Below are positions 13,613 to 62,250 of a stretch of 64,000 nucleotides of DNA, piece by piece (position 1 is the stretch's first letter; each line of letters opens with the position of its first letter). The notes under the pieces were generated by a model. That model worked only from the letters and a program-made list of their open reading frames with translations. It ran no database searches and was not told the DNA's origin. A program made the position numbers and the translations under genes. Source of the stretch: Alphaproteobacteria bacterium (GTDB lineage Bacteria > Pseudomonadota > Alphaproteobacteria > Rs-D84); NCBI GenBank assembly GCA_017524525.1, contig JAFXVM010000014.1:5680-69679 (forward strand). The letters are read 5' to 3'.

Positions 13613-13854
13613 CCATATCTCCTTTTTTATTTGATGAAATAACCAACCCCCATTATTGGCAAGATTGGCGCTATATCCATGCCACCCATTATTGGCAATA
13701 GCATGCTTTGCGATATAACTTTGCTCATTGTGATACATTCCTGACAATAAGTCAAAATATAAATTGTCTTGACAACGGACTTGAAATATGTCACGCAATT
13801 CCTATATATATTTTGGAGTGGGGTGGAGAGCCCGGAAAACCAAAGGAGTTCACC

Positions 13855-25801: not shown

Positions 25802-28630
25802 TTAAGGTGTTGTTCGCACTCTCCATCCTGTTGAATGGAACCCAGTTCTTGTAAATGTTCCGCTTGGGAATGCAACCGCACCATCATATGTACAAGAATT
25901 AGATTCAACCAAATTGTTTTGATTGTACCAGTTCAAAGTAATGGTTGTCGCATCACAGTATTGAACCGCGCCCAATGTTCCAAACAAATCTTTGCGGAAT
26001 GAAGAACTGTCGGTTATATTTGTGACACAAGTTTGTGCGCAATATGTTGAACATTGTGCTTGGTCGTTAAAAGTATTTTGAACTGGGGTTATATGTGCTG
26101 GTGTCACAGTCACATTGGAACCGCCCAACAACGAATACCCTGTTAAATTGCAAGAACAATCATAAGTATTGCTTGCGTTAATTGCACAGGTTGCATTACC
26201 GTTGATTTTGGTGTTATCGCTCCATTTAATTTCCCAATCACCCGGTGTCATACCCGTAGTTGCGCCTTGGTCGTTGCCAGAACTGCTGCCCGATGCGGAA
26301 CTGTCACCTGCAAGATATTTTATATTCTGGTTATAAACACCCAATATTGATTGCAACACATAATTCGACAAAGCCCCTGGGGTATTGGATGCATAACCAG
26401 TCGAACAATTCAAAGCCGTCACAGCGCAAGCGCCAATTGAATCAAGTATGCACCCAGCAACACTGCCACTGTATTCTTTACAGGTTGCGTTTGTATTCGC
26501 ATACGTTGCACCGCTTTCTTTGTTGGCATTTGTGACCCCAGTGCGTGGGTTAATAGTTGCACATACCACAGAACCAGTCTTATAACACTGTTTGTCACTT
26601 ATTGCACCTGCGGCAGAATATGGATAAGTTGTCGAACAAGCGTTAATTCCCTGATTAACGTTCTTATAGAAGAATGTTCCACCCGGACAATAAGAATTTG
26701 CAGTGCATGGTTGACATACCATCGTGTTTGCTGGCAGGTAAGTCCCCGGTTCACAAACATACTGTGCCTGGTCACACACAGGTTGTTTACCCAAAGAATC
26801 AAAAAGAAGCAAACGTGAATTTTGTTCGCGCGCTATTGCCTGTGCACAGGTCAGAGTACATTTGTCTTGACAAATTTGTTGTGTGTCGTATTCGAAAGCT
26901 TTAATCGTATTTGCAGGTGACACAGATACTGGGGTTGCGCCCAACAATGAATAGCTGTCCAAACTGCAGTTGCAATCATATTTGCCGTCGGCATTAATTG
27001 AACATGAAGCAAATCCATGAACATAGGTATTATCAGACCAAGTTAAGCGATATTCACCATTTGTCATTCCTGTTGTTGTACCTTGATTGTTAGCATAACT
27101 ACTTGGACCATTTGCACCAAGTGATAAAAAAGATATATTGGTGTTATAATCCCAAAACATATCTTGAATAACATAATTTGCAAGTGGTCCCGCGGTTGTC
27201 GCTGTATACCCCGCATCACAAGCCAACGTCATCGCACATGCACCAATCGGGTCGGTTCCGCCACCAACAGCATAAGAAGCCCCATTCCAGAACGTTATCA
27301 CAGATGCATTTGTGTTTGTATACGATGCAGTACCATGACCCGCCGTATACGGATTAAGGCTAGAGCAAGCCTTGGACCCAAGGATATAACACTGACTTTC
27401 GACTGTTGCGCCAGACAAAGAATAAACCGCAGAACCATTTACGTCGCTTGGACATGTTTTTATCCCTTGGGCATCAGAAAGTTGTGGGAATGTTCCCCCC
27501 GGGCAATAACTGCCACTTGGACAAGGTGAACAAGTTGTCGCATTAGCTGCCAAATATGTTCCCGGTTGACATGTATAGGTTATCTGTTCACATGCCATCT
27601 GTTGACCATATGTTCCCAATATCGCGAGTTCAAGACTAGGTTTGTCGTGAAATGATCTATAGCATTCATATACACAAGCATCTGCACAGTCTGTCGCATT
27701 TCCGAAAATATTCAGTGACACCCAATCAGTATCTGTTGTTGTCACTGTTGTGCCAGAATTTGTTGTATAACTGTCCATATTGCACCAACATTGTGTACCT
27801 GTGCTGGATGGGCTAAAAGTTGCATTCGGACGCGTTTCTCCATGTTCGCTGTTAGTATTATCGCATGATGTACGCATATGTATTTTTGCGCCATCATTCC
27901 AAGCATATTCCACGGTGCCATTTGTCATATTCGTCGAATCGCCAAAACCCAGTGCGACACTGCTGCTACCGTTGCCAGTTGTAGAACCACTGCGCGCGCG
28001 CCATTTCGTATTAGATTTTGATATCTTTGAAGATTGTGCAACATAATTTGCCATTGCACCATTTGTAGATGGATTTAAATTGTACCCATTGTTACAGGTT
28101 AAACTTACGATTGCACATGCACCAATTGTATTTGAAACAAGCGTTCTGTTAATCGCATATTCCCTGGCGGGTACCGAAGAACCAGAAGTTGCGTATGTCG
28201 CGGTCCCATTAACAACAGGATTAATGTTTGCACATGATGTCGTTTTGGCACTATAACACATGTTAGAATTGTCGTTTCCTGTATCAGAAAGATGGTAGAA
28301 AGACTCATGATAGTCTGAACAAGCCTTAATTCCCACATCCGATGTTTCATCAAATGTATATGTACCACCCGGACAAACATAATTTTGGGTACATGTCAAA
28401 CATGTCGCGGTTAAATGATCCAAAAATGTCCCAGGATTGCAAGTATATGTATTTGGCGTCCATCGTGCGATAAATTTTGTCGCAGCATCGGTTTCCAACG
28501 CGCTGTTTACGCTGCACATAGCGTTCACGCCATTTATTTTACCACTGGTATCAATAGTCACGGCCAAAGCAGGGCACGCAACGCAAATTGCGATAATAGA
28601 CGGAAAAAGAATTTTTTTTCTGTTATACAT
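25802..28630 (-). CDS. secreted cysteine-rich modular repeat protein with a C-terminal flg_new (Listeria-Bacteroides) repeat, family member 1 (942 aa from M19)
   Basis: Leader MYNRKKILFPSIIAICVACPALA, three ~270-290-aa Cys-rich modules, and terminal ITLNWY...SCTYDGAVAFP...TRTGFHSTGW. Confidence 0.8.
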   Translation of the reverse strand: MYNRKKILFPSIIAICVACPALAVTIDTSGKINGVNAMCSVNSALETDAATKFIARWTPNTYTCNPGTFLDHLTATCLTCTQNYVCPGGTYTFDETSDVGIKACSDYHESFYHLSDTGNDNSNMCYSAKTTSCANINPVVNGTATYATSGSSVPAREYAINRTLVSNTIGACAIVSLTCNNGYNLNPSTNGAMANYVAQSSKISKSNTKWRARSGSTTGNGSSSVALGFGDSTNMTNGTVEYAWNDGAKIHMRTSCDNTNSEHGETRPNATFSPSSTGTQCWCNMDSYTTNSGTTVTTTDTDWVSLNIFGNATDCADACVYECYRSFHDKPSLELAILGTYGQQMACEQITYTCQPGTYLAANATTCSPCPSGSYCPGGTFPQLSDAQGIKTCPSDVNGSAVYSLSGATVESQCYILGSKACSSLNPYTAGHGTASYTNTNASVITFWNGASYAVGGGTDPIGACAMTLACDAGYTATTAGPLANYVIQDMFWDYNTNISFLSLGANGPSSYANNQGTTTGMTNGEYRLTWSDNTYVHGFASCSINADGKYDCNCSLDSYSLLGATPVSVSPANTIKAFEYDTQQICQDKCTLTCAQAIAREQNSRLLLFDSLGKQPVCDQAQYVCEPGTYLPANTMVCQPCTANSYCPGGTFFYKNVNQGINACSTTYPYSAAGAISDKQCYKTGSVVCATINPRTGVTNANKESGATYANTNATCKEYSGSVAGCILDSIGACAVTALNCSTGYASNTPGALSNYVLQSILGVYNQNIKYLAGDSSASGSSSGNDQGATTGMTPGDWEIKWSDNTKINGNATCAINASNTYDCSCNLTGYSLLGGSNVTVTPAHITPVQNTFNDQAQCSTYCAQTCVTNITDSSSFRKDLFGTLGAVQYCDATTITLNWYNQNNLVESNSCTYDGAVAFPSGTFTRTGFHSTGWRVRTTP
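25949..28447 (-). repeat. three tandem Cys-rich coding modules (type A, B, B)
   Basis: Module heads Y-x-C-x-P-G-T-[FY]-L at aa 80, 370 and 642 of the track ORF. Module nt ranges are 27578-28447, 26762-27577 and 25949-26761. Confidence 0.75.
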
Positions 28631-28862
28631 ACTTTTTTTCTCTCTCGTGGTGCAATTTTTTCGGCACTGAACCTGATACAACATAAATTACACCATCTGC
28701 CCATTTTTTATAAAAATGCCAGATTTTTGCCCTTTCCAGTCCGTTTTTTTACACCAACAAGTACTATATATATGAACATCTTAATATAAATCAAAAATAA
28801 AGAAAAGAGAAAAAAAAGAAAAAAGTCGTCGAAACGACTTTTTATTTCTTGACTTGTTAACG

Positions 28863-30683
28863 TTATTTTTCTATTTTGTCTTTATCTTCATTTTTGTCAT
28901 CTTTTTCATTGGTCTTAAATTGCATATCATAAAGCATCTTGTATGCACCACATTCTATTTTTAACAAATCTTCGTGTGTCCCAGTTTCAACGATTTGCCC
29001 GTCATTGACAACAATAATCTTGCTGGCATTACGGATGGTTGAAAGTCTGTGCGCGATAACGAACACCGTTTTATCATGCATCAAATTTTCAATCGCTTTT
29101 TGAACAACGGCTTCTGATTTGTTGTCCAGTGCCGATGTTGCTTCGTCCAGTACCAATATCGGCGCATTCTTCAAAAATGCACGTGCGATTGCAACACGTT
29201 GTCTTTGACCCCCAGACAGTAAAATTCCGCGTTCACCAATTTGGGTGTCTATGCCATCTTTTAGTGTTGCTAAAAATTCGTCCAAATAAGCCAATTTGAC
29301 GGCTTTCTGTAATTGTGCTTCGCTTGCGTTTTCGTCGCCCAACATAATGTTTTCGCGAATTGTTCCTTCGAACAAGAAATTGTCTTGGAATACAACTGCA
29401 ATGTTTTGACGCAAAGATTTCAAAGTAAAATCACGAATATCGCGCCCATCAACAGTTATAGAACCAGATGTCACATCATAAAATCTGGGTAATAAATTAA
29501 CCAAAGTTGTTTTTCCACCACCAGAATTTCCAACAATAGCGACAGTTTCGCCCTTATTCACAACCAAATTAATATGTTTTAATACTGGCACATCAGGAAC
29601 ATAATTAAATGTGACATCATTAAAACTAATTTGATGTTGCATAGCAGGCATTTCTATTGCATCTTCTTTGTCTTTGATTTTTGGTTGTGCGTCCAATATA
29701 TCAAAACATGTCTCGATTGCCCAAAAAGACATAATCACAGAACTGTATGTGTTTCCAATACTTTTCATTGGCTGATAAAGCAAAATTAATGCAGTCAAAA
29801 ACGACACAAATCCGCCTGGCGTTAATTGTTTAGATAAAATTAAATACGACCCAAACCAAAGTGCCAAAGCAATACCAATCGATAAAATAACATGCATTAC
29901 AGGTGTTAGCCAACGTGTTCTTTGGAAAACTTTCATTTGTAGATTAAAGTTTTTGTGAAGTACATCTACATATCTGTTTTCTTGGTATTTTTCCAAATTA
30001 TAAGAAACGATAGTTTTGTTTCCAGAATAAGTTTCATTATATTTGGTTGTCAAACGCGACATAATAGCCATCGCATTATTTAATACGGGGGATACGCGCT
30101 TTTTAAGAGACGCCATTGGCAAAAACGCAAACAATAAAACCGCCACAGTCACAAAAGCCAATTGCCAAGAATTAATGAAAAGCACGACTATCAATGAAAG
30201 CGAAGTAAAGAATTTTTGAACAAAAGATTTAAGATTCGATAATAACCCAGCGCAAGCAGCATCTGCATTAGAATTAAATCTTATTAATATCTCTCCGGAA
30301 TTTTTAGTTGTGAAAAATTCTGTTTCAAACATTAATAATTTTCTAAATAAATCTGCCTTTAACGCGTTAGTGATTTTCCCACCAACCCATGTATTAAGAT
30401 AATTTAGTGTATACGTTAATCCACCCTGAACAGTGGTGAACGCAACAATCAGTACAGGAATATACCAACTTGACTGCATGGTTTGTTCGACCATAACTGC
30501 GTCAGTATATGGCTTTATCGCCCATGCAATAACCGCATCCATTGAACCAACTGGAATCGCCAACAACAAAGTCATTAATGCACGGAACCACACAGGCTTA
30601 ATATATGGCCACATGCGCTTATAGTTTTTAACAAACATATTTTCCAAAACACGCCGTTTCATCGCGGCAGATAATTTTTCCAT
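28863..30683 (-). CDS. ABC transporter, fused permease/ATPase (MsbA-like exporter)
   Basis: Six N-terminal TM segments, Walker A GNSGGGKTT, signature LSGGQRQRVAIARA, Walker B ILVLDEATSALD. Start is chosen at M22 (AGGA upstream). Confidence 0.85.
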   Translation of the reverse strand: MEKLSAAMKRRVLENMFVKNYKRMWPYIKPVWFRALMTLLLAIPVGSMDAVIAWAIKPYTDAVMVEQTMQSSWYIPVLIVAFTTVQGGLTYTLNYLNTWVGGKITNALKADLFRKLLMFETEFFTTKNSGEILIRFNSNADAACAGLLSNLKSFVQKFFTSLSLIVVLFINSWQLAFVTVAVLLFAFLPMASLKKRVSPVLNNAMAIMSRLTTKYNETYSGNKTIVSYNLEKYQENRYVDVLHKNFNLQMKVFQRTRWLTPVMHVILSIGIALALWFGSYLILSKQLTPGGFVSFLTALILLYQPMKSIGNTYSSVIMSFWAIETCFDILDAQPKIKDKEDAIEMPAMQHQISFNDVTFNYVPDVPVLKHINLVVNKGETVAIVGNSGGGKTTLVNLLPRFYDVTSGSITVDGRDIRDFTLKSLRQNIAVVFQDNFLFEGTIRENIMLGDENASEAQLQKAVKLAYLDEFLATLKDGIDTQIGERGILLSGGQRQRVAIARAFLKNAPILVLDEATSALDNKSEAVVQKAIENLMHDKTVFVIAHRLSTIRNASKIIVVNDGQIVETGTHEDLLKIECGAYKMLYDMQFKTNEKDDKNEDKDKIEK

Positions 30684-30863
30684 TTTGTATATCCTGTTTT
30701 TCAAACCAGATACCAGATTAGTAAATTTATAACCAAAAGTCAACATCTCATAAATTCCTAGGGTAAAGAATAAAAAATGTTTGTATATACCATTTTATCC
30801 TTGCTTTTATAGATATTTTCTATCAAAATACGCCCGGTTTAATCAACATACAAAGGAGATACC

Positions 30864-33566: not shown

Positions 33567-33659
33567 GTTTTTTTTGTTTTTTATGAAAATATATATTTTT
33601 TTTGTTTTTTTTAATTTTGATTTGTGTTATAATGCCACTATAAAAGGAAGGAGATTTTG

Positions 33660-35228
33660 ATGAAAAAACTATTTTTAACCTCTGGGGTTATTTTATGCAT
33701 GGCGTGCCCAGCGCTTGCAACAACCGACATTGATTATTCTAATGGCAGTTATACTGCTGGTGGTGCAACACCTACCTGTGTGGAAGATATTACTGGTCAA
33801 ACAGAACAACTTTCAACAGCTGAATTTGAAGCGCGTTGGACTCCAATACCATATACGATTGCTTTTGCAGCGGGAACAGCGGGAACACATACACCCAGTG
33901 GTTCAACAGCATCTGTGACGCCTGTCACGTTTGATAGTACCAATATCGCATTGACTGCAAATGGATTTACACAATCTGGTTATCACTTTACGGGTTGGGA
34001 ATCTCCTGTTGATTTGACGGATGGAACTGCTGCACCAGTAGATCCGGGTTATGTTTTGTATCGTGGGACCCAGGCAAATACTCCTAATGGTGATTACAGT
34101 AGTGGTACGGTGGCATCTTACGGTTATGTCCCGGCATCTGGTACAACTGTCACACTTACTGCACAATGGGCGCCAAATACATACGACGTAGTTTATAATC
34201 CTGGTACTGCAAAAAATGGTTCTACTACTCATGCGGTGTCAGGAACCGCTTATACAGATACTGCAACATATGAAGCGGCATACACTGTGTTGAATAACAC
34301 AAACAGCAATCTTGGTTTTTCGCAAACTGGTTATCATTTTACTGGTTGGCGTGCAGATAACGACATTGTGACTCCTACATCTACTGCTTTAAGTGATTCT
34401 AATACGGCGGGCGGAACGCAATTTAGTGCGGGCGCAACACCAACGTATAAAGTCCTTGGGGCTGTCAATATGTATGCTCAATGGGCACCGGATCAATATG
34501 ATATATCGTACAATAGTGGTTTACATGGCAGTGCTTCCACGGATCCGTATGAGGTCACAAATGGTTTGACATATGATTCAACATGGACACCTGCTGCTTT
34601 TGCATCAACGGGTATCACAGCTGATTCCGGATATACATTCAGTCACTGGAATACCAGTTCAGATGATACAGGAGCCACCTATGTAGCAGGTACAGAACAA
34701 GCTGCGTGGACTTCTGAACAGGGTTTAAGTTTATATGCTATATATACTGCGAATCCTTATACAATCTCGTATAATTGTGGTTCTGCTGTTTCTGGTTCTG
34801 CGTCTACTGCGGGTGGTTCTGTTCCAGGAACACAAAATGTCTCTATGGACGGTCCATATACATTGGCAGCGAATACCTGTACAATGTCCGGTTATACGTT
34901 TAACGGTTGGTCATGTCCAAACTTACCAGGAACACCGACCATGCCTGCGGACGCAGAAACAAAGACATACTTTGCAGGTGGTGCAACAGGTACATACAGT
35001 TACGCAGGCAGCATAACATGTACAGCACAATGGAAACCAAACGACATTACTTTGAACTGGTATAATGATACAGTGGCTAATGGTGGAACGGCAATTAATG
35101 TGTCTGGTACTGATGCGGAGTCTTGTACGTATGACGATACAATTGATTTGGCTCCACTGCCAACCAAGACTGGTTATCACTTTACAGGGTGGACACTCAG
35201 AACAACACCTGCGTCACAAAACCCATAA
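33660..35228 (+). CDS. secreted flg_new (Listeria-Bacteroides) repeat protein, family member 2
   Basis: SD AAGGAGA. Leader MKKLFLTSGVILCMACPALA. Five G-Y-x-F-x-[GH]-W units separated by ...AQW.P[ND].Y... junctions. Ends TKTGYHFTGWTLRTTPASQNP. Confidence 0.8.
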   Translation: MKKLFLTSGVILCMACPALATTDIDYSNGSYTAGGATPTCVEDITGQTEQLSTAEFEARWTPIPYTIAFAAGTAGTHTPSGSTASVTPVTFDSTNIALTANGFTQSGYHFTGWESPVDLTDGTAAPVDPGYVLYRGTQANTPNGDYSSGTVASYGYVPASGTTVTLTAQWAPNTYDVVYNPGTAKNGSTTHAVSGTAYTDTATYEAAYTVLNNTNSNLGFSQTGYHFTGWRADNDIVTPTSTALSDSNTAGGTQFSAGATPTYKVLGAVNMYAQWAPDQYDISYNSGLHGSASTDPYEVTNGLTYDSTWTPAAFASTGITADSGYTFSHWNTSSDDTGATYVAGTEQAAWTSEQGLSLYAIYTANPYTISYNCGSAVSGSASTAGGSVPGTQNVSMDGPYTLAANTCTMSGYTFNGWSCPNLPGTPTMPADAETKTYFAGGATGTYSYAGSITCTAQWKPNDITLNWYNDTVANGGTAINVSGTDAESCTYDDTIDLAPLPTKTGYHFTGWTLRTTPASQNP

Positions 35229-35293: not shown

Positions 35294-35506
35294 GCGTTAA
35301 AAAACTCTTGATTTTTTTTGAAAATTTTTTGTATATACGTTTTTGCGAATCGTTTTTTTGCAAAATGCCTGATTTTCTAAAAATAAAATCCCCCAGATTT
35401 CTGCGGGTTTGTCTATACATTTTTGGCAAAAATATTTTATTTTGTCAAAAATTTGGTTTATGAAATTTTTGTGATATAATTACTAGTGAAGAGAGAAGAG
35501 AGAAAA

Positions 35507-36472
35507 ATGAAAAAGATTTTCTTAACATCAACTATTGTTTTATGCATGGCGTGCCCAGCGTTTGCTGATGACCCTGTGCCACCTACGGGCATAGCAATTG
35601 TTAACGGCGTTGCGCAAAACAATGACTGCGATCACGCTACTTTGGGTGTTTATAGTGGCTCTGTTAGTTTGGAAGCACAATGGACTGCTAAACGTTACAC
35701 TGTGACATATGACAAAGGTGCACACGCTGCGAGCGGTGTTAATAATTATGTAGACTCTTATAATGAACAAACAGGAACAGGTGGTGCCAGATACGACAGT
35801 AATTATACGGCACTGACTGGTGGTGGTGCTAATGCTGCTGCATCACAAACTGGAATTTATGCTGCGCCAGGTTACAGTTTTGTTGGTTGGACCACAGATC
35901 CAACACCTACATTTACAGATAATAATTTGAATCATGCTTGGGGTGGGGCAACTCCGTGGCAGACTGATGGCAATATAACAGTTTATGCTGCGTATAGCGC
36001 GGAAGGTATTGCGATTAGATTTGATTGCAATTATCCTTCTGGTGCATCTACGACAGAAAGTGGCACAGGTCCAGCGCCACAAAGTATTTTGATACCTATG
36101 GATACTTCTGGAACGCTCAGCGCAACATGTACATTGCCGGGTTATACATTTAATGGCTGGAATTGTACGGTTGGTTTAAGCGATTCGACAAATACTGCAT
36201 ATACATTAACAGAAGGCAGAACTTCACTTATCTCGAATGGGACCACGGTGTATATTCATAATGCCGAAGGTGTCGATTGTTATGCGAATTGGACTGCGAA
36301 TACAATTACGCTTAATTGGACAGATCCTTCTGGTACCAACACATATCAGCCGGGTTCTTGTACATATGACGGCGACGTCACATTGCCTGCTAATCCTGTT
36401 AGAACGGGGTACAAATTTGTTGGATGGACCGTTGGATCAAACCAACAAGAACAACAACAAACAAATCCATAA
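35507..36472 (+). CDS. secreted flg_new repeat protein, family member 3
   Basis: Leader MKKIFLTSTIVLCMACPAFA. Three G-Y-x-F-x-G-W units. Ends ITLNWTDP...SCTYDGDVTLPANPVRTGYKFVGWTVGSNQQEQQQTNP. Confidence 0.8.
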   Translation: MKKIFLTSTIVLCMACPAFADDPVPPTGIAIVNGVAQNNDCDHATLGVYSGSVSLEAQWTAKRYTVTYDKGAHAASGVNNYVDSYNEQTGTGGARYDSNYTALTGGGANAAASQTGIYAAPGYSFVGWTTDPTPTFTDNNLNHAWGGATPWQTDGNITVYAAYSAEGIAIRFDCNYPSGASTTESGTGPAPQSILIPMDTSGTLSATCTLPGYTFNGWNCTVGLSDSTNTAYTLTEGRTSLISNGTTVYIHNAEGVDCYANWTANTITLNWTDPSGTNTYQPGSCTYDGDVTLPANPVRTGYKFVGWTVGSNQQEQQQTNP

Positions 36473-40446: not shown

Positions 40447-40476
40447 TAAAAAACAGGTGGGGAAAATCCCCACCGT
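40447..40476 (-). terminator. intrinsic terminator after the 1978-aa gene
   Basis: Minus strand reads acggtgggg-atttt-ccccacct followed by gtttttt. Confidence 0.7.
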
Positions 40477-40487
40477 TTTATTGACTA

Positions 40488-43400
40488 TTATTGTATAACC
40501 TGATAACCCATAAAGTTATACCCGGTTCGTGTTTCTGCTGTGGGTAATGTAAAGTCATCATCATACGAACATTGATTCGTGGTCATTTGAGTGTTTCCAT
40601 CATACCACGTAATATTGTAAGTATTTGGATTACACGGTGCCACAGGGTTTTTGCCGTATGAACCAAACAGGACATTTTCAACCGGTTTGTCTAATAAGTA
40701 TTCCGATAGACTGCTGTTAAGGCATTCTTTGGAACAAGTGCTGGCATCGTCAAATCCTTTAATATACACCCAATTTGAATCATTTACATTTACTGTTGAT
40801 TGACTATTTAATTGATATCCGGTCATATTAATCCAACAATGTTTACCAGTGCTGGTTGAATTAAATGTAGCATAAGATTTTGTTTCGAAATCTGTACTGC
40901 CAGCGGTTGTGTTACACGATGCGCGTCCCATAATCTTGGTTCCATTATTATATACCAATTCAAATGTTCCCGCGGTCATACCGTTTGAAGAACCAGCATA
41001 TAATTCACTAGTGCCACTGCCAGTAGAACCGTCCAATTCCAGATATTTTGTAGAAGATAAATTCAAATTTCTGGATTGATTAATATAATTAACCAATGGG
41101 CCATCTGTCGTATTCATTGCGGCATAACCAGTGTTGCAACCACTGATAGATGATACAGCACATGCACCAATGGCGGTTATTTCTAGTTCGTCAGAGAAAT
41201 ATATTCTGGTTGCTGCGGTTTGATTAGCATAGGTCACACTTGATGCGCCACGTACTGGATTTACCACAGAGCATTGTTGTGTGCTGGGGTTTTTATAACA
41301 GAACCGCTTATCTTTTGCACCTGTATCAGAATATGAGTATCCGCTTTCGCATTGTTCTTTACCTTGGTCTTTGGTCGTACTAATGTCCCATGTTCCGCCA
41401 GGGCAATAATACCCATTGCCCGGACATATCGAACATGTTGTGTTGCCCATCGCCAAATATTCACCCGGCGCACAATTATATTGTGGAATACCACATTGTC
41501 TGGTATCACCCAAATCACCAAATTCAGGGGTCATGGCAGTTTGTTTTGCACAGTCATGTGCACATTCATACTGACAATCAGACAATGTTTTATCTTTCAT
41601 TGGCGTTAATATTGTCACAGCAGGATTAACAGATACTGTGCTGCCACTGCCGATTTTATAACTGGTTAAACTGCAATGACAATCATATTTGCCGTCCGCA
41701 TTTACATCACATGATGCGGTTCCGTTAACTTCTAGATCAGTACCATATACCAATCTAAATGTTCCGTTTTGCATACCAATATAATCACCTGTGCCTTCAG
41801 CCGCGCGACCGCTGTTTACACCACTATCACCATTTATTGCACGATAATGAACTTCTTTGTTGTTGTCAAAAGGCATACCAAACACAGGTGATTCATAATT
41901 TGATAATGGACCCGCAGAACCAACCAATGTTTCACCACTGTTTTGACATGTGGCATCTGTTATTGCACATGCCCCCACCGGAACAACAGAATTCACAACA
42001 GAATCAGTATAAGTGCGTCTTGTTGCTGTGGCATTAGCATAGGTTGCATCCGCATAATCAATTTTTAACAAGTCTTTGCAGTTTACTGTTTCTTCTTTGT
42101 AACAGAAACCAATATACGCTGTGCCTTGGGCTGAATTTGGATAATTACTTAAACATTTTTCTTTGCCTTGGTCATCTAAGCTACTGGCTTGGACGTTGTT
42201 GACACCTTTGCAGTAATAACCCGCCGGGCAAATTGCACAGGTTGTTTCGTTCTTTGGTAAATAATATCCAGGATTACAAGAATACGTTGGTATTTCACAT
42301 GCCATCTGTTGCCCGTATGTCCCCAACAAAGCAGACATCATTTTATTCACTATATTTGGATTTTCTGAGAAATTCACACACTTAGATGCGCAGTCGTTTG
42401 CACATCCTGAATTTGAATCGGCTTTTTTAACGAATGCCCAATCTGAATCATTTACATTTGTCGCACTGCCACCATTTAGTTGATACCCCGTCATATTGCA
42501 CCAACAATATTTACCAGTGCTGGATGAATTAAAGGTATTATTAGATCTGGTTTCGCCAACATTAACACCATCGGTTGAATTGCAAGATGCGCGAACATTT
42601 ATCTTTGTTCCGTCTGTCCATTGAATTATGCCCGTACCGTTCGTCATACCTGTTGAATCACCGTATCCATAGGATGCAGAACTGTTCTTTCCATCATCAC
42701 CATTTAACGCGCGGTATTTACAATTCGCCTTTGAAATATTGTGCGATTGATTGACATAATTCACAAGTACCCCATTTGTCGCAGGTGTCACAACATAACC
42801 GTTCGCTGTATCGCAAGTCAGTGCGGTTATTGCACATGCACCGATGTTTTCTGTTTCTGTGCCTGGCGTATAAGCGCCATAAGATGCGGTTGTGTTCGCA
42901 TACGTCACAGATGTAGAATTTGATACTTTGTTCAAAGTTGAACAGTTGTCGGTACCCGTTTCTTTATTACATTGTGTCTCAGCCCATGAACCGACCACAG
43001 ATTTGGTGAATCCGCTTGGACAATCGTATATTCCTTGTTCTTCTGTTGTGCTGTATGAAAAGAAACCGCCAGGACAGAAATGATTGATTGTACATTGTAC
43101 ACAAGCGGTTGCTTCTTTTGGTAAATAATATCCCGGCGCGCAAGTGTATTGGCTTATGCTGCACGCTTTCTGTTGTCCTAAATCATCAAATAAAATAACG
43201 CGGATGTCTCTATTACGGGCAATATCCATTGCGCACGTCTGGGCACATTTTGATTCAGCTGCTGACTGAAGTGGAAGTGCATCATAACTGCTGGTTGTAC
43301 CCTTAGCAGGATTAACCGTCACAGCAGAACCACCAGACAAAGTATAACTGTCCATACTGCAACTACAAGCATATTTCCCATCCTTGTAAAGGTAGGATGC

Positions 43401-46379
43401 ATATCCGTGTATTTTTGCACTGCCCAAATCAACTTCGTATTCACCGTTTAACATCCCCGTGTGTGAACCTTGGTTGTTATCACCACTGTTTTCACCATTA
43501 TCACCATTTATTGCACGATATCTGATATTTGGATTTGCTGTAAATGGTACAGATTGGATTATTGATGCCGACAAAGGACTATTTGATGCCGGTTCTATGC
43601 TATAACCTGTTGGACAGGTCAGGGTCGTTATCGCACATGCGCCCGGCGTTTCTAATGCGTCGCCACCACCCAGATAGTGTAAAACATTAGTTTTTGTATT
43701 TGCGTACCCCACAGACTGACCCTCTACAGGATTAATAGTGGCGCATGACACATCCGCATTTATTTTATAACAATATTCGCTGCTTCGTGCGCCCGCCGCA
43801 GACGTATAAGTGTCGTCTGCACCTTCTGCTTTTGTACAATTTTCGGCACCTTGGTCATCGTTTTCAGAATAAGTGAACGAACCCCCAGGGCAATAAAATC
43901 CAACCTTGCATCCAGAGCAAGTTGTGTCACCCGCTGCTAAATAATATCCAGGATTGCAAGTATATGTTCCAGCGCTGCATTCCATTTGTTGTCCCAATTC
44001 ACCCAATAATAATTCTATACCCGGTACTGTTGCTGAGCTTGTGCTTTTGCTCGAACCTGTGTCTTTATTGTCGTCGCTCTTTGAAACCGACACGGTTCTT
44101 TTGTTGATAAAGAAACTATATAAACAAGAATTAACACACTCGGCTGCACATATTTGATAATCGTGCTTTTTATCTTCGAACACCCAATCAGAATCGTTTA
44201 CACTTACTGCGGATGCATTATTTAATTGATATCCCGTCATATTGCACCAGCAATATTCACCTGTATCCGTTAAATCAACCTGGTCATTCGGCAGGGAAGA
44301 AACTGTTTTTTGTTTTGTATTTGCAGTACTTGGGTCTGTATAGGTAATCTTATTACTGGTTGCGCTGCAAACCGCACGACCAAATATTTGTGTTCCATTA
44401 TTATAAGCAACAGCAAATTGTCCGGTGGTCAAGCCAGTGGTTGAAGCACTGCTGTTATCTGTTGAACCGTCAATTGCATACCATTTTGTGTTTGCCCTTG
44501 ATATGCTGGATGATTGATTAATATACGCGGATAATGCGCCATTTGTACCAGATGAAGTATAACCCGTGTTACAAGTCAACGATTGTATCGCACATGCACC
44601 CACTGGGCTGATTTCTGTTCCAATATTGTAATAATCCCTGTAATTTGCAGATGTGTTTGCATAAGTAGCGGTTCCGTTTGTGACTTTATTAAATTCGGCA
44701 CAATTTTTTGTTCCGCTGTTCCCGTAACATTGGGATTCGTGTGTAGAATTCGCATCGGAATTTGGATATAATGGTGTGCCTATGTCATCCATTTTTAAAT
44801 CTGCACAACTTTTTATACCGCAATTTTTATCGTTGCTGTATGAACATGTTGCGCCAACACAATAAGAACCCGATGGACAGCCTGAACAACTGAAACCGCC
44901 CGCCGCCAAATATTGACCCGCTGGACATGTAATTGTGTCGCTGCAGGCGCTTTCACTTGTTGAACCAGTGGCAGAGAAAGTTTGATTGCCACTTGTGTCA
45001 AGTGGACATGCGGTTCTTCCTTGGTCTGCAACGGCGCTGTATTGATAAACGTTCGCCCTTGGACAATAAGAACCCGCTGGACATGTTGCGCATTGGGTTG
45101 TTGCCTTTGGTAAATATTGACCCGCCGGACATTCATATCCAACATAACAATCGCTTTGTTCATCAGAGCCCGCATCGGAATTAGGTGTCGCAACTGGACA
45201 GTTGTTTAATCCTTGGTCACTTCCGTTCGGTGTAAATGTTCCGCCCGCGCAATAATGGTCAGCAGGGCATATCACACATTGGTTTGTCGCGCCACTAAGA
45301 TATTGACCCGCACTGCAAGTCACAGAATCAGCAACACATTCCATTTGTTTAACAAGCGAACCCAAAAGTGCAAAGTTGACATCAAGTAACACTTCAAGAC
45401 AGCCTATAGAACAATAAGAAGCGCAACGTTCATTCGAAGTGCCGCCTTCCAAAAATTTCCAAGTTGGTGCAGATATTGTTTGTGTGGAACCATTGGCAAC
45501 AGCATAACTGTCTATTTTACACCAACAATTTGCCCCCGTGGTCCCAACGGTAAATGCGTTTGCGGGACGCGAAGCAACACCACCGTCCGCCCAAATTATG
45601 TTATATTTTTCTTCGTCGCTCAGTGAATCAAAACCCGACAAATCATGTTGTGAAACCGTTGTTGTATTACAAGTCGCAACACCACTTATTACCGTACCGT
45701 CAACCCAGCCAATTTGCCATTGACCATTGGTTAATCCCGTTGCATTAAAGCTAGTTTCGTTATCACCATTCAAAGCGCGCACCTTGGTGGTTGTTCCAGA
45801 CATATTGTGCGATTGATGGGTATAATTTGCCAATGGACCATTTGTTGATGGAATCTTTGAATACCCGCTGTCGCAAGTCAATGCAGTTAATGCACACGCG
45901 CCAATGTTATCTGTTTCTTGGCCACTTGGATATATCTTGTATGCCACAGATGTTTGGGTTGCATATGTTGGTGTTCCATTTAAAACCTTGTTTATTTTAT
46001 CACAAGTATCTGTCCCTGTTTCGCTGTAACATTGAGAATAACTCCATGAACCGGCAGCAGAATTTTTATATTGGTCATCATCACATGCTTTAATACCTTG
46101 GTCGGTGCCATCAAAAACAAATGTTCCGCCCCCGCAATAATTTTTTGTTGTACATTGAACACATGTCGCGGTTGTCGCGTCCAAATATGTTCCCGGATTG
46201 CAAGTGTAAGAATTTGCCTGGTACTTTGCGAAAAATTTCAGTGTGCCACCATCACTTCCCAAACCTGTATCACAGGTTTCTTGGCTGCTTGAAGTAATCA
46301 AAGTCGATTCGGCAACCCCAGAATATACAACGAATACAGCAAATACTGATGTCAGGAATATCTTGATTTTTGTGTTCAT
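40488..46379 (-). CDS. giant secreted cysteine-rich modular repeat protein with a C-terminal flg_new repeat, family member 4 (1963 aa from M16)
   Basis: Leader MNTKIKIFLTSVFAVFVVYSGVA, six Cys-rich modules plus two head-only units, and terminal YNITWYDGN...QCSYDDDFTLPTAETRTGYNFMGYQVIQ. Confidence 0.85.
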   Translation of the reverse strand: MNTKIKIFLTSVFAVFVVYSGVAESTLITSSSQETCDTGLGSDGGTLKFFAKYQANSYTCNPGTYLDATTATCVQCTTKNYCGGGTFVFDGTDQGIKACDDDQYKNSAAGSWSYSQCYSETGTDTCDKINKVLNGTPTYATQTSVAYKIYPSGQETDNIGACALTALTCDSGYSKIPSTNGPLANYTHQSHNMSGTTTKVRALNGDNETSFNATGLTNGQWQIGWVDGTVISGVATCNTTTVSQHDLSGFDSLSDEEKYNIIWADGGVASRPANAFTVGTTGANCWCKIDSYAVANGSTQTISAPTWKFLEGGTSNERCASYCSIGCLEVLLDVNFALLGSLVKQMECVADSVTCSAGQYLSGATNQCVICPADHYCAGGTFTPNGSDQGLNNCPVATPNSDAGSDEQSDCYVGYECPAGQYLPKATTQCATCPAGSYCPRANVYQYSAVADQGRTACPLDTSGNQTFSATGSTSESACSDTITCPAGQYLAAGGFSCSGCPSGSYCVGATCSYSNDKNCGIKSCADLKMDDIGTPLYPNSDANSTHESQCYGNSGTKNCAEFNKVTNGTATYANTSANYRDYYNIGTEISPVGACAIQSLTCNTGYTSSGTNGALSAYINQSSSISRANTKWYAIDGSTDNSSASTTGLTTGQFAVAYNNGTQIFGRAVCSATSNKITYTDPSTANTKQKTVSSLPNDQVDLTDTGEYCWCNMTGYQLNNASAVSVNDSDWVFEDKKHDYQICAAECVNSCLYSFFINKRTVSVSKSDDNKDTGSSKSTSSATVPGIELLLGELGQQMECSAGTYTCNPGYYLAAGDTTCSGCKVGFYCPGGSFTYSENDDQGAENCTKAEGADDTYTSAAGARSSEYCYKINADVSCATINPVEGQSVGYANTKTNVLHYLGGGDALETPGACAITTLTCPTGYSIEPASNSPLSASIIQSVPFTANPNIRYRAINGDNGENSGDNNQGSHTGMLNGEYEVDLGSAKIHGYASYLYKDGKYACSCSMDSYTLSGGSAVTVNPAKGTTSSYDALPLQSAAESKCAQTCAMDIARNRDIRVILFDDLGQQKACSISQYTCAPGYYLPKEATACVQCTINHFCPGGFFSYSTTEEQGIYDCPSGFTKSVVGSWAETQCNKETGTDNCSTLNKVSNSTSVTYANTTASYGAYTPGTETENIGACAITALTCDTANGYVVTPATNGVLVNYVNQSHNISKANCKYRALNGDDGKNSSASYGYGDSTGMTNGTGIIQWTDGTKINVRASCNSTDGVNVGETRSNNTFNSSSTGKYCWCNMTGYQLNGGSATNVNDSDWAFVKKADSNSGCANDCASKCVNFSENPNIVNKMMSALLGTYGQQMACEIPTYSCNPGYYLPKNETTCAICPAGYYCKGVNNVQASSLDDQGKEKCLSNYPNSAQGTAYIGFCYKEETVNCKDLLKIDYADATYANATATRRTYTDSVVNSVVPVGACAITDATCQNSGETLVGSAGPLSNYESPVFGMPFDNNKEVHYRAINGDSGVNSGRAAEGTGDYIGMQNGTFRLVYGTDLEVNGTASCDVNADGKYDCHCSLTSYKIGSGSTVSVNPAVTILTPMKDKTLSDCQYECAHDCAKQTAMTPEFGDLGDTRQCGIPQYNCAPGEYLAMGNTTCSICPGNGYYCPGGTWDISTTKDQGKEQCESGYSYSDTGAKDKRFCYKNPSTQQCSVVNPVRGASSVTYANQTAATRIYFSDELEITAIGACAVSSISGCNTGYAAMNTTDGPLVNYINQSRNLNLSSTKYLELDGSTGSGTSELYAGSSNGMTAGTFELVYNNGTKIMGRASCNTTAGSTDFETKSYATFNSTSTGKHCWINMTGYQLNSQSTVNVNDSNWVYIKGFDDASTCSKECLNSSLSEYLLDKPVENVLFGSYGKNPVAPCNPNTYNITWYDGNTQMTTNQCSYDDDFTLPTAETRTGYNFMGYQVIQ
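40635..46208 (-). repeat. six tandem ~270-320-aa Cys-rich coding modules (A, heads, A, B, A, B, A)
   Basis: Module nt ranges: 45324-46208, 43965-44933, 43149-43964, 42285-43148, 41481-42284 and 40635-41480. Head-only units lie at 44934-45323. Boundaries come from my residue count of the Y-x-C-x-P-G heads. Confidence 0.75.
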
Positions 46380-46557
46380 TTCTTTTTCTCTCTTGCAATA
46401 CTTTCTATGGGCATTGTTGCACAATAGAATAACCTTGTAAACAAAAAAATTTGATATTTTTGTATTTTGTTAAAAATATTAAAAAACCGCAGAAAACCGC
46501 CGTTTTTTGATATGGTTTGTATATACAAAAAATAACATGTTTTTGTGTAAAAAACAC

Positions 46558-46586
46558 TTGACGATTTGTTGTTTTTGTACTATATT
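46558..46586 (+). promoter_or_regulatory. sigma70-type promoter of 46618-47019
   Basis: TTGACG, 17-nt spacer, TATATT. Confidence 0.45.
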
Positions 46587-46617
46587 TTATGGTGTGAAAC
46601 AACAAAGGAGTGTCTTG

Positions 46618-47019
46618 ATGGCAGAACAAAATAAAAATTATAATCTTACTATCGTTCAAGATTATCTTGAAAGATTGGGTAAGAAAAATGACGAAGGAAC
46701 ACAATTTTACAGCGATGTGACAATTTTGTCTGGCCCTGGTATGAGCGAATATAATTATTTGCAAAATACACACAAAGATTTATTTGAACGCTGGAAAAAA
46801 GGCGAAGTGTCCATGTACAATGTGAAATGGGCGGGCGTAGCGTTCGTTTTGGAATATCAATATGGTGGCGAAAAAATATACGAATACAAGGGCGATAGAT
46901 GCAAAGCACCTGTGTGGAATCCATGGCGTGCTTTTGTTGTATACAAACATCAAATTACACCTGTGGGGCTGGATTTGGCTGTGGCTGTTAAAAACTTGTT
47001 CAAAGAACAAGTACGTTAA
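46618..47019 (+). CDS. hypothetical protein (133 aa)
   Basis: ATG preceded by AAAGGAG. A terminator follows (aaacaccatcaaacgatggtgttttttt). No motif. Confidence 0.5.
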   Translation: MAEQNKNYNLTIVQDYLERLGKKNDEGTQFYSDVTILSGPGMSEYNYLQNTHKDLFERWKKGEVSMYNVKWAGVAFVLEYQYGGEKIYEYKGDRCKAPVWNPWRAFVVYKHQITPVGLDLAVAVKNLFKEQVR

Positions 47020-50663: not shown

Positions 50664-51485
50664 ATGAATATGAGTCTTGATTCTTTAATCACAACTTTGG
50701 GACAAATTGTCGCGACTTTTGGAACTAAATTAATAGCCGCTGTTGCTATATGGGTTATTGGTTTTTGGATTGTGAAAAAGGTTGTTGCATCTATTTCTTT
50801 CACGATGCGCCAACACGAAGTGGAACCTTCGTTGGCTTCGTTTACACAATCGTTTTTAAGCATCACTTTGAAAGTATTGGTGGTAATAATCATACTGACA
50901 ACACTTGGTGTCCAAATGACTTCTATTGTAGCAGTTCTTGGTGCTGCATCATTGGCAATTGGTATGGCGTTATCTGGGACATTACAAAATGTAGCAGGTG
51001 GCATGATTATATTATTTTTTAAACCTTTTCGTGTTGGCGAAGCGATTGTGACAGCAGACGGCAAAGCAGGTATTGTCAAAAAGATAATGATATTTACAAC
51101 AGAATTGCATACTTTTGATAATCAAATTTTGTTTTTGCCAAATGGCGCACTGTCAAATGGTATAATAACTAATTTATCCCAGGGTAAAAATCGCAGAACA
51201 GATTTAACAGTTGGTATATCGTACGGTGATGATGTTGAAAAAGCGCGTGCGACTGCTTTGAAAATATTATCCAAAGATAAACGTGTTTTGAAAAATCCGG
51301 CACCAGAAATTATATTGTCTTCGCTGGATGACAGTGCGGTCACATTGATTGTTCGTTATTGGACTAAATACGAAGATTTGTTGTCGGCCCAGGCGGACAT
51401 TTTGGAAACAATTTATAAAGAATTTCCAAAGAATAAATTGCATTTTCCATTCCCCCAGATGGATGTTCATATGAAAAAGAATTAA
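50664..51485 (+). CDS. small-conductance mechanosensitive channel (MscS family)
   Basis: Three N-terminal TM helices, then LSGTLQNVAGGMIILFFKPFRVGEAI and a beta-domain. Confidence 0.85.
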   Translation: MNMSLDSLITTLGQIVATFGTKLIAAVAIWVIGFWIVKKVVASISFTMRQHEVEPSLASFTQSFLSITLKVLVVIIILTTLGVQMTSIVAVLGAASLAIGMALSGTLQNVAGGMIILFFKPFRVGEAIVTADGKAGIVKKIMIFTTELHTFDNQILFLPNGALSNGIITNLSQGKNRRTDLTVGISYGDDVEKARATALKILSKDKRVLKNPAPEIILSSLDDSAVTLIVRYWTKYEDLLSAQADILETIYKEFPKNKLHFPFPQMDVHMKKN

Positions 51486-52170: not shown

Positions 52171-53040
52171 TTATTTTTGCAAAGCATTAATAATAACACT
52201 TTGTAAAACATTTAATTCGACGGCTTGAATAGATTTTTCATTGAATTGTTTTGTTATTTCATCATGCGCGCTTTTAAGGTATTCAGGACACTTTGAAATG
52301 TTCACCACACATCCATCATAAACCATAAAAATTGGGCGATAAGGCACATTGTAAGAATTGTCTAAAACTATACCAAAATCAACCAAAGATAAAACAGTTG
52401 GCAAATTATTTAAACTGTTTTGATAACGTCGTATAATTGTATCAGCAGGAACATCATGTCCACCCATTTGAACACGCCGTTGAACGCGTGCAACACTTAA
52501 TTCAGGTCTATAAACATATGGATGAATACTGTAAATTTTATATCCATATTCATTTTTTGCGCGTTTTAAAAGTCTTTGTGGAAAATGTCCAGAACCAGTC
52601 GTTTCATATATAAAATTTTGGCCGTGTTCCAAAGAATAATTAATTTCACCAACTGTTTGTATACCTGCTTCTTGTTGCAAAGCAAATTCTATTAATTTTT
52701 GTTGATGTAATAATTCTTCTAACTCTTTTTCTGTTTTTTCTTTGTTTAAAAGCGTCAGTTTTTCTGCGATTTCTTTTTGTTTTGCAGATATATCATATTT
52801 TATATTTTGTAATCTTTGGACATTTGTTGGCTTGGACGCGATATTAGCAAATTTAATGTCTTGGTTAATAAATACAGCATCTTGGAATAAAGCACTTTCT
52901 CTTATGGAATAATTAAAGTTGATAAAAACAGCGTCTCTAAACAAAACATTACCTTTTATAATATGGTTATAAAAAGTAGTTTTACCGGCGCCATTTGGTC
53001 CGGAAATAAGCACAAGATAAGGTTGTTTGTTGTCTGTCAT
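52171..53040 (-). CDS. zeta-toxin-like P-loop kinase/ATPase (COG4185-like) with an internal duplication and a coiled-coil insertion
   Basis: Walker A LISGPNGAGKTTF, FIYETTGSG, and C-terminal RVQRRVQMGGHDVPADTIIRRYQNSLNNL, typical of the zeta/PezT-like family. Confidence 0.6.
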   Translation of the reverse strand: MTDNKQPYLVLISGPNGAGKTTFYNHIIKGNVLFRDAVFINFNYSIRESALFQDAVFINQDIKFANIASKPTNVQRLQNIKYDISAKQKEIAEKLTLLNKEKTEKELEELLHQQKLIEFALQQEAGIQTVGEINYSLEHGQNFIYETTGSGHFPQRLLKRAKNEYGYKIYSIHPYVYRPELSVARVQRRVQMGGHDVPADTIIRRYQNSLNNLPTVLSLVDFGIVLDNSYNVPYRPIFMVYDGCVVNISKCPEYLKSAHDEITKQFNEKSIQAVELNVLQSVIINALQK

Positions 53041-62147: not shown

Positions 62148-62184
62148 ATTAAAATCCTTTTTGTTAAAAAATAAATGTTTGGAA

Positions 62185-62213
62185 AATAAAAAAAGACGGT
62201 AAATCACCGTCTT
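62185..62213 (-). terminator. intrinsic terminator between the large unknown ORF and the Mtd_N gene
   Basis: Minus strand reads aagacggt-gattt-accgtctt followed by T7. Confidence 0.65.
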
Positions 62214-62250
62214 AATCTGTGCAACATTATACCACAAATCAACGCAAAAA

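Follow-up and report, generated by a model that had tools for sequence, protein, structure and literature searches.

Giant repetitive proteins with a variable distal end are a known kind of bacterial surface protein. The fibrillar adhesins among them are long chains with a signal peptide, tandem folded repeats and a conserved and a variable end; they usually have stalks of immunoglobulin-like (Ig-like), Big or SdrD_B domains, and may carry an LPXTG motif, an autotransporter barrel, a type I secretion system (T1SS) RTX signal or an adhesive domain. Cysteine-rich, repetitive antigens with strain-level diversity are also described from protists, as the VSPs of Giardia and the antigens of ciliates. 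Here we describe a giant protein, p1, encoded on the reverse strand at positions 40488-46379 of a stretch of 64,000 nucleotides from an uncultured gut alphaproteobacterium (GenBank assembly GCA_017524525.1, contig JAFXVM010000014.1, positions 5,680 to 69,679; this whole stretch is called the window below). The repeated unit of p1 is a large, previously undescribed domain, the body, which follows a small six-cysteine domain, the head, and the N-terminal part of the protein differs strongly between otherwise closely similar strains.

The open reading frame (ORF) at 40488-46424 (-) is open throughout, with no interruption. An earlier sequence-only reading of this DNA had recognised in it a giant protein with internal cysteine-rich repeats, and the present analysis agrees; the ORF itself stands, but the length of 1978 aa given then had been counted from a TTG further upstream. 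Translation probably begins 15 codons later, at the ATG at 46379, which gives 1,963 aa (residue numbers of the earlier reading equal those used here plus 15). A purine-rich stretch precedes this ATG, the signal-peptide-like MNTKIKIFLTSVFAVFVVYSGVA comes right after it, and public gene calls for p1 begin at the same codon. The mature form is an acidic protein of ~205 kDa (pI 4.6) with 109 cysteines. At least four assemblies made independently (two from ENA, and Logan assemblies from three runs) encode an identical 1,963-aa protein, and an allele of 84% identity, P0001, lies on three further contigs. Since the protein recurs in independent assemblies, and since the DNA copies of its modules are only 60-85% identical to each other and contain no long exact repeat, a collapsed-repeat or frameshift artefact is excluded; repeat collapse had been argued against earlier from the divergence of the copies.

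Eight heads begin at aa 56, 352, 415, 482, 805, 1077, 1365 and 1633 (numbered from the ATG at 46379), and there are six bodies of two types, A and B. Each body forms a full module with the head before it, so that the chain, with its six modules and two lone heads, reads A, head, head, A, B, A, B, A. This is the arrangement proposed by the sequence-only reading, and its motifs are likewise all present: CW[CI]NMTGYQLN and NDS[DN]W in A, DGKYxCxCS[ML]xSY in B, and [IV]GACA, in the six bodies. Two details needed correction. The head-only units exist but lie at about 44940-45329, not at 44934-45323, and the terminal motif L-[FL]-G-x-[LY]-G-x-[QN], ascribed to each module, is exact in modules 2, 4 and 6 but replaced by the variants LLGSLVKQ, LFDDLGQQ and EFGDLGDT in modules 1, 3 and 5. 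The full modules of p1 and of its paralogue p2 match one another in pairwise BLASTP comparisons at E = 1e-16 to 1e-68 (A with A 1e-31 to 1e-68, B with B 1e-37 to 1e-63, A with B more weakly at 1e-16 to 1e-36), and the head-only units match every other head at E = 1e-4 to 1e-13; similarity of this degree greatly exceeds chance.

Head and body are separate domains. The head is ~62 aa long, contains six cysteines and makes up about a quarter of each module, whereas the body is one domain of ~205-250 aa and accounts for the other ~75%. A hidden Markov model (HMM) built from nine modules of the window was run on 18 database relatives; one head precedes every body in these proteins, and in relatives P0004-P0010 heads also occur without bodies, in arrays of 11-27 consecutive copies. 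It follows from these head-only arrays that the head is a domain independent of the body. The unit had earlier been described as a head and a body that ends in one of two tails; it consists instead of two independent domains, and ‘body plus tail’ is a single folded domain.

The body has no known relative. An AlphaFold2 (AF2) model of module 4, built on an alignment of 39 modules, reached a mean pLDDT of 94.5 and a pTM of 0.88. It predicts an N-terminal lobe of five strands, then a long and mostly irregular connector, and a C-terminal lobe in which five further strands are followed by a helical hairpin ending in the LLGxYGQQ motif. In a second AF2 model, which comprised module 5, module 6 and the tail, the B module was predicted at a pLDDT of ~90 with the same order of elements as module 4. 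Scans of Pfam and NCBIfam with p1, p2, single modules and ten wider relatives gave no family for the body, and a scan of PHROGs gave no match for the body and none of note on p1. In a sequence-profile search of the PDB the body profile found nothing, while the profile of the wide family described below found only two chance matches to the PHD finger. Foldseek searches of the PDB with both models, and of BFVD with the first, returned nothing at E <= 1e-3; the best TM-scores were below 0.26, and the matches to HasA, AlaRS and DDB1 that lie under this value were dismissed as noise. Literature searches on this family, and on bacterial GCC2_GCC3 proteins from organisms of this kind, brought up nothing of relevance. 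The body is therefore a previously undescribed protein domain, outside Pfam, NCBIfam and the PDB.

The head, by contrast, can be placed. When 213 heads were aligned by hhalign with the 34 PF07699-type repeats of P0012, a distant relative and giant bacterial protein that scores 288 bits to PF07699, the profiles matched with a probability of 96.5% and E = 8.4e-10, over the first 29 columns only; P0014, which is related to P0012, is named as a protein of an Alphaproteobacteria metagenome-assembled genome (MAG). This profile alignment identifies the head as an extended variant of the Ephrin_rec_like repeat class. The spacing of cysteine, glycine and tyrosine, C-x2-G-x-Y…C-x2-C-P-x-G-x-Y, is matched eight times in p1 and three times in p2, and recurs in tandem in relatives. 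The PF07699 model itself (gathering threshold 23.1 bits) had no match on p1 or p2 even at E <= 1, and among TNFR and furin-like Pfam models the best on p1 was TNFR_ELAPOR1_6th, on one stretch, at 16.2 bits against a cut-off of 33.2. In the AF2 model the head is predicted to consist of short beta-hairpins, and Foldseek placed a viral Ephrin_rec_like protein at rank 8 as a weak match (E = 1.4, probability 0.57). The resemblance to eukaryotic folds that had been suggested for the modules thus survives in part: the head is related to Ephrin_rec_like/GCC2_GCC3 repeats, but the PF07699, TNFR and furin-like models all stay below threshold, and for the modules as a whole the suggestion fails, as the body, ~75% of each, has no eukaryotic or other known relative. 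One of the relatives with head-only arrays, P0004 (locus L013, 10001-15985), carries a faint Pfam flag for rSAM_modified_put (PF27842), which probably arises from its cysteine-rich repeats; a link of this flag to the radical-SAM gene adjacent to p1 in the window was rejected, as that gene is nrdG, beside nrdD.

Types A and B are two old subtypes of one body domain. In a neighbour-joining (NJ) tree of 48 bodies they separate at the midpoint root, with a bootstrap for the bipartition of 94/100 (196 well-occupied columns) or 71/100 (columns upstream of the CWC motif alone). Since the split holds upstream of this motif, the dichotomy proposed by the sequence-only reading is not just a matter of its diagnostic tail; what has to be given up is the notion of two different tails, because A and B are homologous over their full length and differ chiefly in one loop and two Trp motifs. 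The loop lies between Cys126 and Cys141 (profile numbering); A modules have 24-47 aa there, B modules 8-9 aa. In a set of 308 domains the loop length ranges from 7 to 89 aa with a standard deviation of 14.8, against 5 or less for all other segments between landmarks. A profile made only from unrelated short family members scores A modules at 1e-19 to 1e-23 and B modules at 1e-5 to 1e-9, which marks A as the canonical and B as the derived form.

The same tree shows that the module duplications are old, with no sign of recent shuffling or concerted evolution. All six modules of the orthologues P0001-P0003 pair with the corresponding modules of p1, the three modules A-B-A of P0004, P0008 and P0009 group with modules 4-5-6 of p1, and the modules of p2 pair with those of P0011. 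Module shuffling, which the earlier reading had wished to see checked in a tree that included p2, was thus rejected, as was concerted evolution: modules group by position across orthologues, and replacement of N-terminal alleles is seen instead.

The cysteines of the C-terminal lobe, as placed by the model, comprise Cys126, a C-x-C on a strand (141, 143) and a C-x3-C-x3-C on the first long helix (175, 179, 183). Columns 141 and 179 are invariant across 313 domains, in which cysteines 126 and 175 tend to be lost together (phi 0.46), as do 143 and 183 (phi 0.54); module 3 of p1 lacks both members of the first pair and module 6 both members of the second. These joint losses suggest a staple of the cysteine-stabilised alpha/beta (CS-alpha-beta) type with one extra bond, so that the lobe probably contains three disulfides that connect the C-x-C strand, and one more cysteine, to the C-x3-C-x3-C helix.

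The domain is not confined to p1. A profile of 26 bodies was searched against 1.84 billion representative proteins, clustered at 50% identity, and identified 523 clusters at E <= 1e-3, of which 126 reached E <= 1e-10. Most matches cover only profile positions ~75-204, that is, the C-terminal lobe, in one to seven copies and in proteins of 116 to 6,218 aa. The last copy lies eight residues or fewer from the C-terminus (…FRxAxFGxxQ) in 72 of 156 proteins, and in many others a Flg_new unit follows it; NCBI names several small members ‘InlB B-repeat-containing protein’. The core of the family reads GEW.V.W…G.V.G.A.C, then a variable loop, then CWC..T.Y…WVF…C...C...C…FR.A.FG, and p1 contains it.

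Every family member with a named source comes from a MAG labelled ‘Alphaproteobacteria bacterium’, and such MAGs carry several paralogues each. When an A-type alignment of seven sequences served as query, the full body was found among GTDB genomes in MAGs from yak reticulum and from rumen (RUG791) and in one further proteobacterial MAG, and a roe-deer rectum MAG matched only part of it; a search of the same genomes with p1 alone returned no relative. The host is an uncultured ruminant-gut alphaproteobacterium. Its gene content (NrdDG, PPDK) points to an anaerobe, and it is diderm, as indicated by BamA on the contig of a relative. Two ORFs of the window, 11271-12407 (-) and 12548-13798 (-), have signal peptides, no Pfam family and the C-termini …RLRLEF and …RFNARF; such endings are typical of outer-membrane beta-barrels and likewise indicate a diderm envelope. 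The 571-aa ORF that precedes the first of them, 9544-11259, belongs to no family.

Between strains, p1 is a mosaic. On the related contigs L001 and L012, NrdD, NrdG, ClpB and PPDK are 99.1-100% identical in amino acid sequence to those of the window, whereas the p1 orthologues are 84% and 79% identical, which places p1 among the most polymorphic genes of an otherwise near-clonal region and makes it a likely interface with host, phage or other microbes. The difference is unevenly spread. Against P0001, amino acid identity is 96% in the signal and leader, falls to 61-66% in module 1 (the most divergent part, with dS of 1.0-1.9), and amounts to 76-78% in the head-only units, 75% in the body of module 2, 92-96% in modules 3-4, 86-91% in modules 5-6 and 100% in the C-terminal 51 aa. 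The relations among the orthologues also change from region to region: P0002 and P0003 are 98% identical in the signal and leader, and P0003 is 83-89% identical to P0001 and P0002 in module 1 and heads h2 and h3, whereas its modules 2-6 are only 40-65% identical to the others. Module 1 of the window is 62-63% identical to P0001, P0002 and P0003 alike. This region-wise incongruence requires recombinational exchange of the N-terminal ~480 residues between lineages. The ratio dN/dS between p1 and P0001 is 0.32 overall and 0.12-0.76 per region, one short segment excepted, and since it is below 1 all modules are under purifying selection. Between alleles, the loop and the rest of the body are 45-61% and 77-84% identical, respectively, in module 2, and 64-75% and 86-93% in module 6.

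A set of constant parts links p1 to three other proteins of the window, namely p2 and the Flg_new-repeat proteins at 33657-35228 and 35486-36472. All four resemble one another in signal peptide and post-signal leader (C…LG…G…[FL].A.[WY]..N.Y) and close with a single terminal unit of the Flg_new type, which ends 5-20 residues before the stop codon and carries the signature …W..N.Y.[IV].[FWY]…G…C.Y…LP…[KR]TGY.F.GW at the extreme C-terminus. The two Flg_new-repeat proteins score 45-60 bits to Flg_new, and among the equivalent tails of relatives those of P0022 and P0029 reach 29-31 bits to PF09479 (cut-off 27), while that of P0005, at 23.7 bits, stays below. Constant ends around different middles suggest a common route of export or attachment.

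The reading that we favour, by a small balance of probability, is that p1 is a Sec-exported, cell-surface and probably disulfide-braced fibrillar protein, an adhesin or coat component, whose C-terminal end is proximal to the cell and whose N-terminal modules form a distal specificity cassette exchanged by recombination. The chain would consist of the signal peptide, the short conserved leader, the six modules with two extra spacers after module 1, and the conserved C-terminal Flg_new-like unit. Each module would combine a six-cysteine spacer of the Ephrin_rec_like type with a two-lobed alpha/beta domain, in which the C-terminal lobe, a beta-sheet packed on a helical hairpin and probably stapled by disulfides, would present one loop without constraint on its length; A would retain the family's Trp motifs together with a long loop, and B would be a derived short-loop form. 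The leader and the conserved C-terminal unit may serve export or attachment, and the N-terminal modules would then point away from the cell. The distal part could act as an allelic cassette that is swapped by homologous recombination between strains and even with more distant lineages, so that different binding or antigenic specificities would coexist in the population.

Several points weigh against this reading. Surface location, orientation and a function in binding or evasion are all deduced from the architecture of p1, for which none of the homologues has a known function. The genes beside it include no evident secretion system, and no outer-membrane route could be identified from the window. 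The Flg_new models (PF09479, TIGR02543) give no Pfam or NCBIfam match on p1, and the confidence of its C-terminal unit in the second AF2 model is below 50; the placement of the modules relative to each other is uncertain in the same model (pTM 0.51), which lends no support to a rod shape. The disulfide pairing depends on only 4-5 joint losses per pair, positions 143 and 175 also covary (phi 0.34), and in the strongly reducing gut the cysteines could bind metal instead. Finally, dN/dS lies below 1 almost everywhere, with no direct signal of positive selection, and in modules 3-5 the loop is not less conserved between alleles than the rest of the body.

A bolder and doubtful proposal concerns the C-terminal lobe of the body, which we term the ‘CWC’ domain. 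It may be a new fold, a disulfide-stapled scaffold with one hypervariable loop of 7-89 aa, and might serve as a diversifiable, lineage-specific binding module in hundreds of surface proteins of gut Alphaproteobacteria, with its specificity renewed by recombinational swapping of distal cassettes. If this were true, the CWC domain would be a bacterial counterpart of variable-loop binding scaffolds. That the heads came from gut protists would be a still more speculative extension of this proposal.

Among the other explanations, a protective variant coat comparable to Giardia VSPs or ciliate antigens survives best, although we regard it as unlikely. Such a coat would be dense and protease-resistant through its cysteine network, and its alleles would evade host immunoglobulin A (IgA), phage or protozoan grazers instead of binding a ligand. 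A cysteine-rich, acidic and repetitive protein would suit this role, as would strongly diverged alleles where the background is otherwise clonal, another hypervariable surface gene nearby, and a large paralogous family with several members per MAG. An identical allele also recurs in several samples, which marks the alleles as stable types and not as products of in-situ switching. However, only two paralogues with full modules occur in the 64 kb, nothing there points to an archive of silent cassettes or to an invertible promoter, and the divergence is concentrated at one end instead of covering the whole exposed surface. The likeness to Giardia VSPs drawn by the sequence-only reading does not stand up either, since p1 has only 8 CxxC and lacks a C-terminal membrane segment or other membrane anchor as well as the CRGKA tail.

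The signal peptide without a recognisable anchor could also indicate a released extracellular protein, such as a matrix protein, an aggregation factor or a scaffold for carbohydrate binding on plant particles, whose bodies would be lectin-like. The conserved Trp and Tyr residues of the wide-family core (GEW, CWC, WVF) and the rumen and gut habitat would agree with this, but there is no carbohydrate-binding module (CBM), lectin family or fold similarity, and an invariant C-terminal unit common to four otherwise different proteins suggests shared handling or attachment; we consider release improbable.

A polymorphic toxin or bacteriocin-like effector, with defensin-like domains stapled through CxC and CxxxC as the active parts, is more improbable by far. 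The cysteine pairing proposed above does resemble a cysteine-stabilised alpha/beta staple, and strains differ strongly in p1. However, p1 varies at its N-terminal end and is invariant at the C-terminus, opposite to what polymorphic toxins show; genes for a toxin, for immunity or for dedicated secretion are absent nearby; and the domain is ~125-250 aa in size, not a defensin of 30-50 aa, with strand and helix in reversed order. Lastly, a prophage or mobile-element protein (a tail fibre or receptor-binding protein, which are often mosaic) or a spurious or chimeric ORF is effectively refuted, in spite of a Mtd_N/tail-like ORF 15 kb away, by the position of p1 between nrdDG and rpmB/clpB with synteny conserved in all strains and no adjacent phage genes, by the dN/dS of 0.32, by the confident AF2 models and by the lack of a PHROG match of note. 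The preferred reading remains that of a fibrillar surface protein with an exchangeable distal part.

Table 1. Features of p1 and related genes in the window (window positions; residues numbered from the ATG at 46379).
Feature	Position	Strand	Remarks
p1 coding sequence, giant protein	40488..46379	(-)	1,963 aa + stop at 40488-40490; identical product and same start in four independent assemblies
sigma-70-like promoter match TTTACA-17-AACAAT, with TG	46413..46441	(-)	upstream of start codon; consensus match only
signal-peptide-like N-terminus, aa 1-24	46308..46379	(-)	Kyte-Doolittle windows >1.6 at aa 4-25; putative cleavage site
post-signal leader, aa 25-55, C..xLG...G...[FL].A.[WY]..N.Y	46215..46307	(-)	by-eye comparison; 96% identical to allele P0001
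module 1, aa 56-350	45330..46214	(-)	head + A-type body, longest variable loop (47 aa)
two head-only units, aa 351-412 and 413-480	44940..45329	(-)	six Cys each
module 2, aa 481-803	43971..44939	(-)	head + A-type body, 38-aa loop; Ser/Thr/Lys-rich insertion before terminal LLGELGQQ
module 3, aa 804-1075	43155..43970	(-)	head + B-type body, 8-aa loop; lacks the Cys126/Cys175 pair
module 4, aa 1076-1363	42291..43154	(-)	head + A-type body; modelled, pLDDT 94.5, pTM 0.88
module 5, aa 1364-1631	41487..42290	(-)	head + B-type body; modelled at ~pLDDT 90, same strand/helix order
module 6, aa 1632-1912	40644..41486	(-)	head + A-type body (CWINMTGY); lacks the Cys143/Cys183 pair
C-terminal unit, aa 1913-1963, ...NITWYDG...C.YD...LP...TRTGYNFMGYQVIQ	40491..40643	(-)	resembles one Listeria-Bacteroides (Flg_new) repeat
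terminator-like hairpin GGTGGGGA-TTT-TCCCCACC + T run	40456..40474	(-)	14 nt past p1 stop; readable on both strands
paralogue p2	25802..28630	(-)	942 aa from second Met; modules A, B, B + C-terminal unit like p1
Flg_new-repeat protein	33657..35228	(+)	same kind of signal, leader and C-terminal unit
second Flg_new-repeat protein	35486..36472	(+)	same leader and C-terminal unit

With a promoter-like match on one side and a hairpin on the other, p1 looks like a single-gene unit (Table 1), with the qualification that promoter-like matches in the region are not more numerous than expected from shuffled sequence and that the hairpin is common to p1 and the convergent nrdG. Apart from the N-terminal signal, the hydrophobic windows of p1 (Kyte-Doolittle >1.6) comprise one internal window at aa 325 and none at the C-terminus. 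N-x-S/T sequons number 48 against 32.7 expected (z = 3.1); enrichment for N-glycosylation was nevertheless rejected, as the reversed motif is nearly as frequent (41), p2 has no excess and the positions are not conserved between modules.

The flanks of p1 are housekeeping genes: nrdD and nrdG adjoin it at one end, a small ORF, tRNA-Leu and clpB lie beyond the other, and PPDK, an ABC exporter and a P-type ATPase are found further out; gene order is identical in all related contigs. The adjoining small ORF, 46507-47019 (+), is 99% identical to strain L001 and 82% to L012, whereas an MscS-like channel at 50664-51485 (+) is 88% identical to L001 and 97% to L012, and these opposite patterns imply that recombination tracts in the region are not confined to p1. 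The Flg_new-repeat protein at 33657-35228 (+) is more divergent than p1, at 48-52% identity between strains in which PPDK, NrdD and ClpB are 99-100% identical. The p2 ORF (25802-28684 (-)) lies directly downstream, on the same strand, of a 627-aa ABC exporter at 28863-30746 (-) (ABC_membrane and ABC_tran); the two may be linked through export, or neighbours by coincidence if the exporter is an MsbA-like gene. A 289-aa ORF at 52171-53040 (-), with synteny kept in related strains, has a weak match to a P-loop kinase of the Zeta_toxin type.

Beside the acetate kinase gene, a 240-aa ORF at 61590-62312 (-) matches Mtd_N (Major tropism determinant N-terminal; E = 8.5e-14) and a PHROG tail protein, and is overlapped by a 551-aa ORF at 62251-63906 (-) that belongs to no family; the pair looks like a phage tail fibre or a target of a diversity-generating retroelement (DGR). 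A DGR link between p1 and the Mtd_N ORF is unsupported, the variable end of p1 being N-terminal; among the window ORFs scanned, none showed a reverse-transcriptase domain, and a template repeat was not searched for.

Gut metagenomes of ruminants and humans commonly contain uncultured Alphaproteobacteria, and to our knowledge almost nothing is known of how these bacteria interact with their surroundings. The locus described here shows that they invest giant genes, and paralogues in about 500 sequence clusters, in one cysteine-rich domain. It provides a natural marker for strain typing, a new domain family whose definition and structure can be worked out, and a case in which to examine extracellular disulfide-rich (or metal-binding) proteins of strict anaerobes.

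Compared with known systems, the last ~45 residues of p1 (…ITWYDG…C.YD…LP…RTGYxFxG[WY]…) carry the signature of the Listeria-Bacteroides or InlB B-repeat (PF09479; TIGR02543), although p1 has a single terminal unit and not an array, and a role of this unit as anchor or export tag is conjectural. The putative staple of the body recalls the CS-alpha-beta fold of defensins and scorpion toxins, in that, judged from joint losses, it would connect a strand C-x-C to a helix C-x3-C (141/143 with 179/183). The order is reversed, however, with the strand before the helix; the domain, at 120 aa or more, is 4-6 times larger than the usual 30-50 aa; a third Cys pair is present; and there is no sequence or fold match, the pairing itself being read from the alignment.

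The head shares C-x-[PA]-G-x-Y-x5-7-C-x2-C-x3-5-[YF]-C, in its first ~30 residues, with Ephrin_rec_like/GCC2_GCC3 repeats (PF07699) and ELAPOR1 modules (PF23091), and like PF07699 repeats, heads of the p1 type form long tandem arrays. In contrast to these families, it is ~62 aa long with six cysteines, compared with 48 aa for PF07699, whose model has no match on p1, and PF23091 scores only 16 bits against a cut-off of 33.

With the Giardia VSPs and ciliate antigens, p1 has in common a cysteine-rich, repetitive and presumably extracellular chain, an anaerobic gut habitat and strain-level diversity. It differs from VSPs in having 8 CxxC, one per head, where these have dozens, and in a C-terminus (…GYQVIQ) without membrane helix or CRGKA; there is no sequence or profile match, and its diversity arises by allelic recombination, not by switching among many genes. 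Fibrillar adhesins come closest in overall design, as p1 is giant, has a signal peptide and tandem folded repeats, and possesses a conserved, presumably cell-proximal, and a variable, presumably distal, end. Yet Pfam finds none of the Ig-like, Big, SdrD_B or other usual stalk domains on p1, Pfam and NCBIfam find no LPXTG, autotransporter barrel, T1SS RTX signal or usual adhesive domain, and its repeat unit is itself a large domain of unknown fold class. Thus p1 belongs to a known kind, the giant repetitive bacterial surface protein with a variable distal end, and what is new is the repeated unit, a member of a large domain family outside Pfam, NCBIfam and the PDB that is joined to a spacer of the Ephrin_rec_like type.

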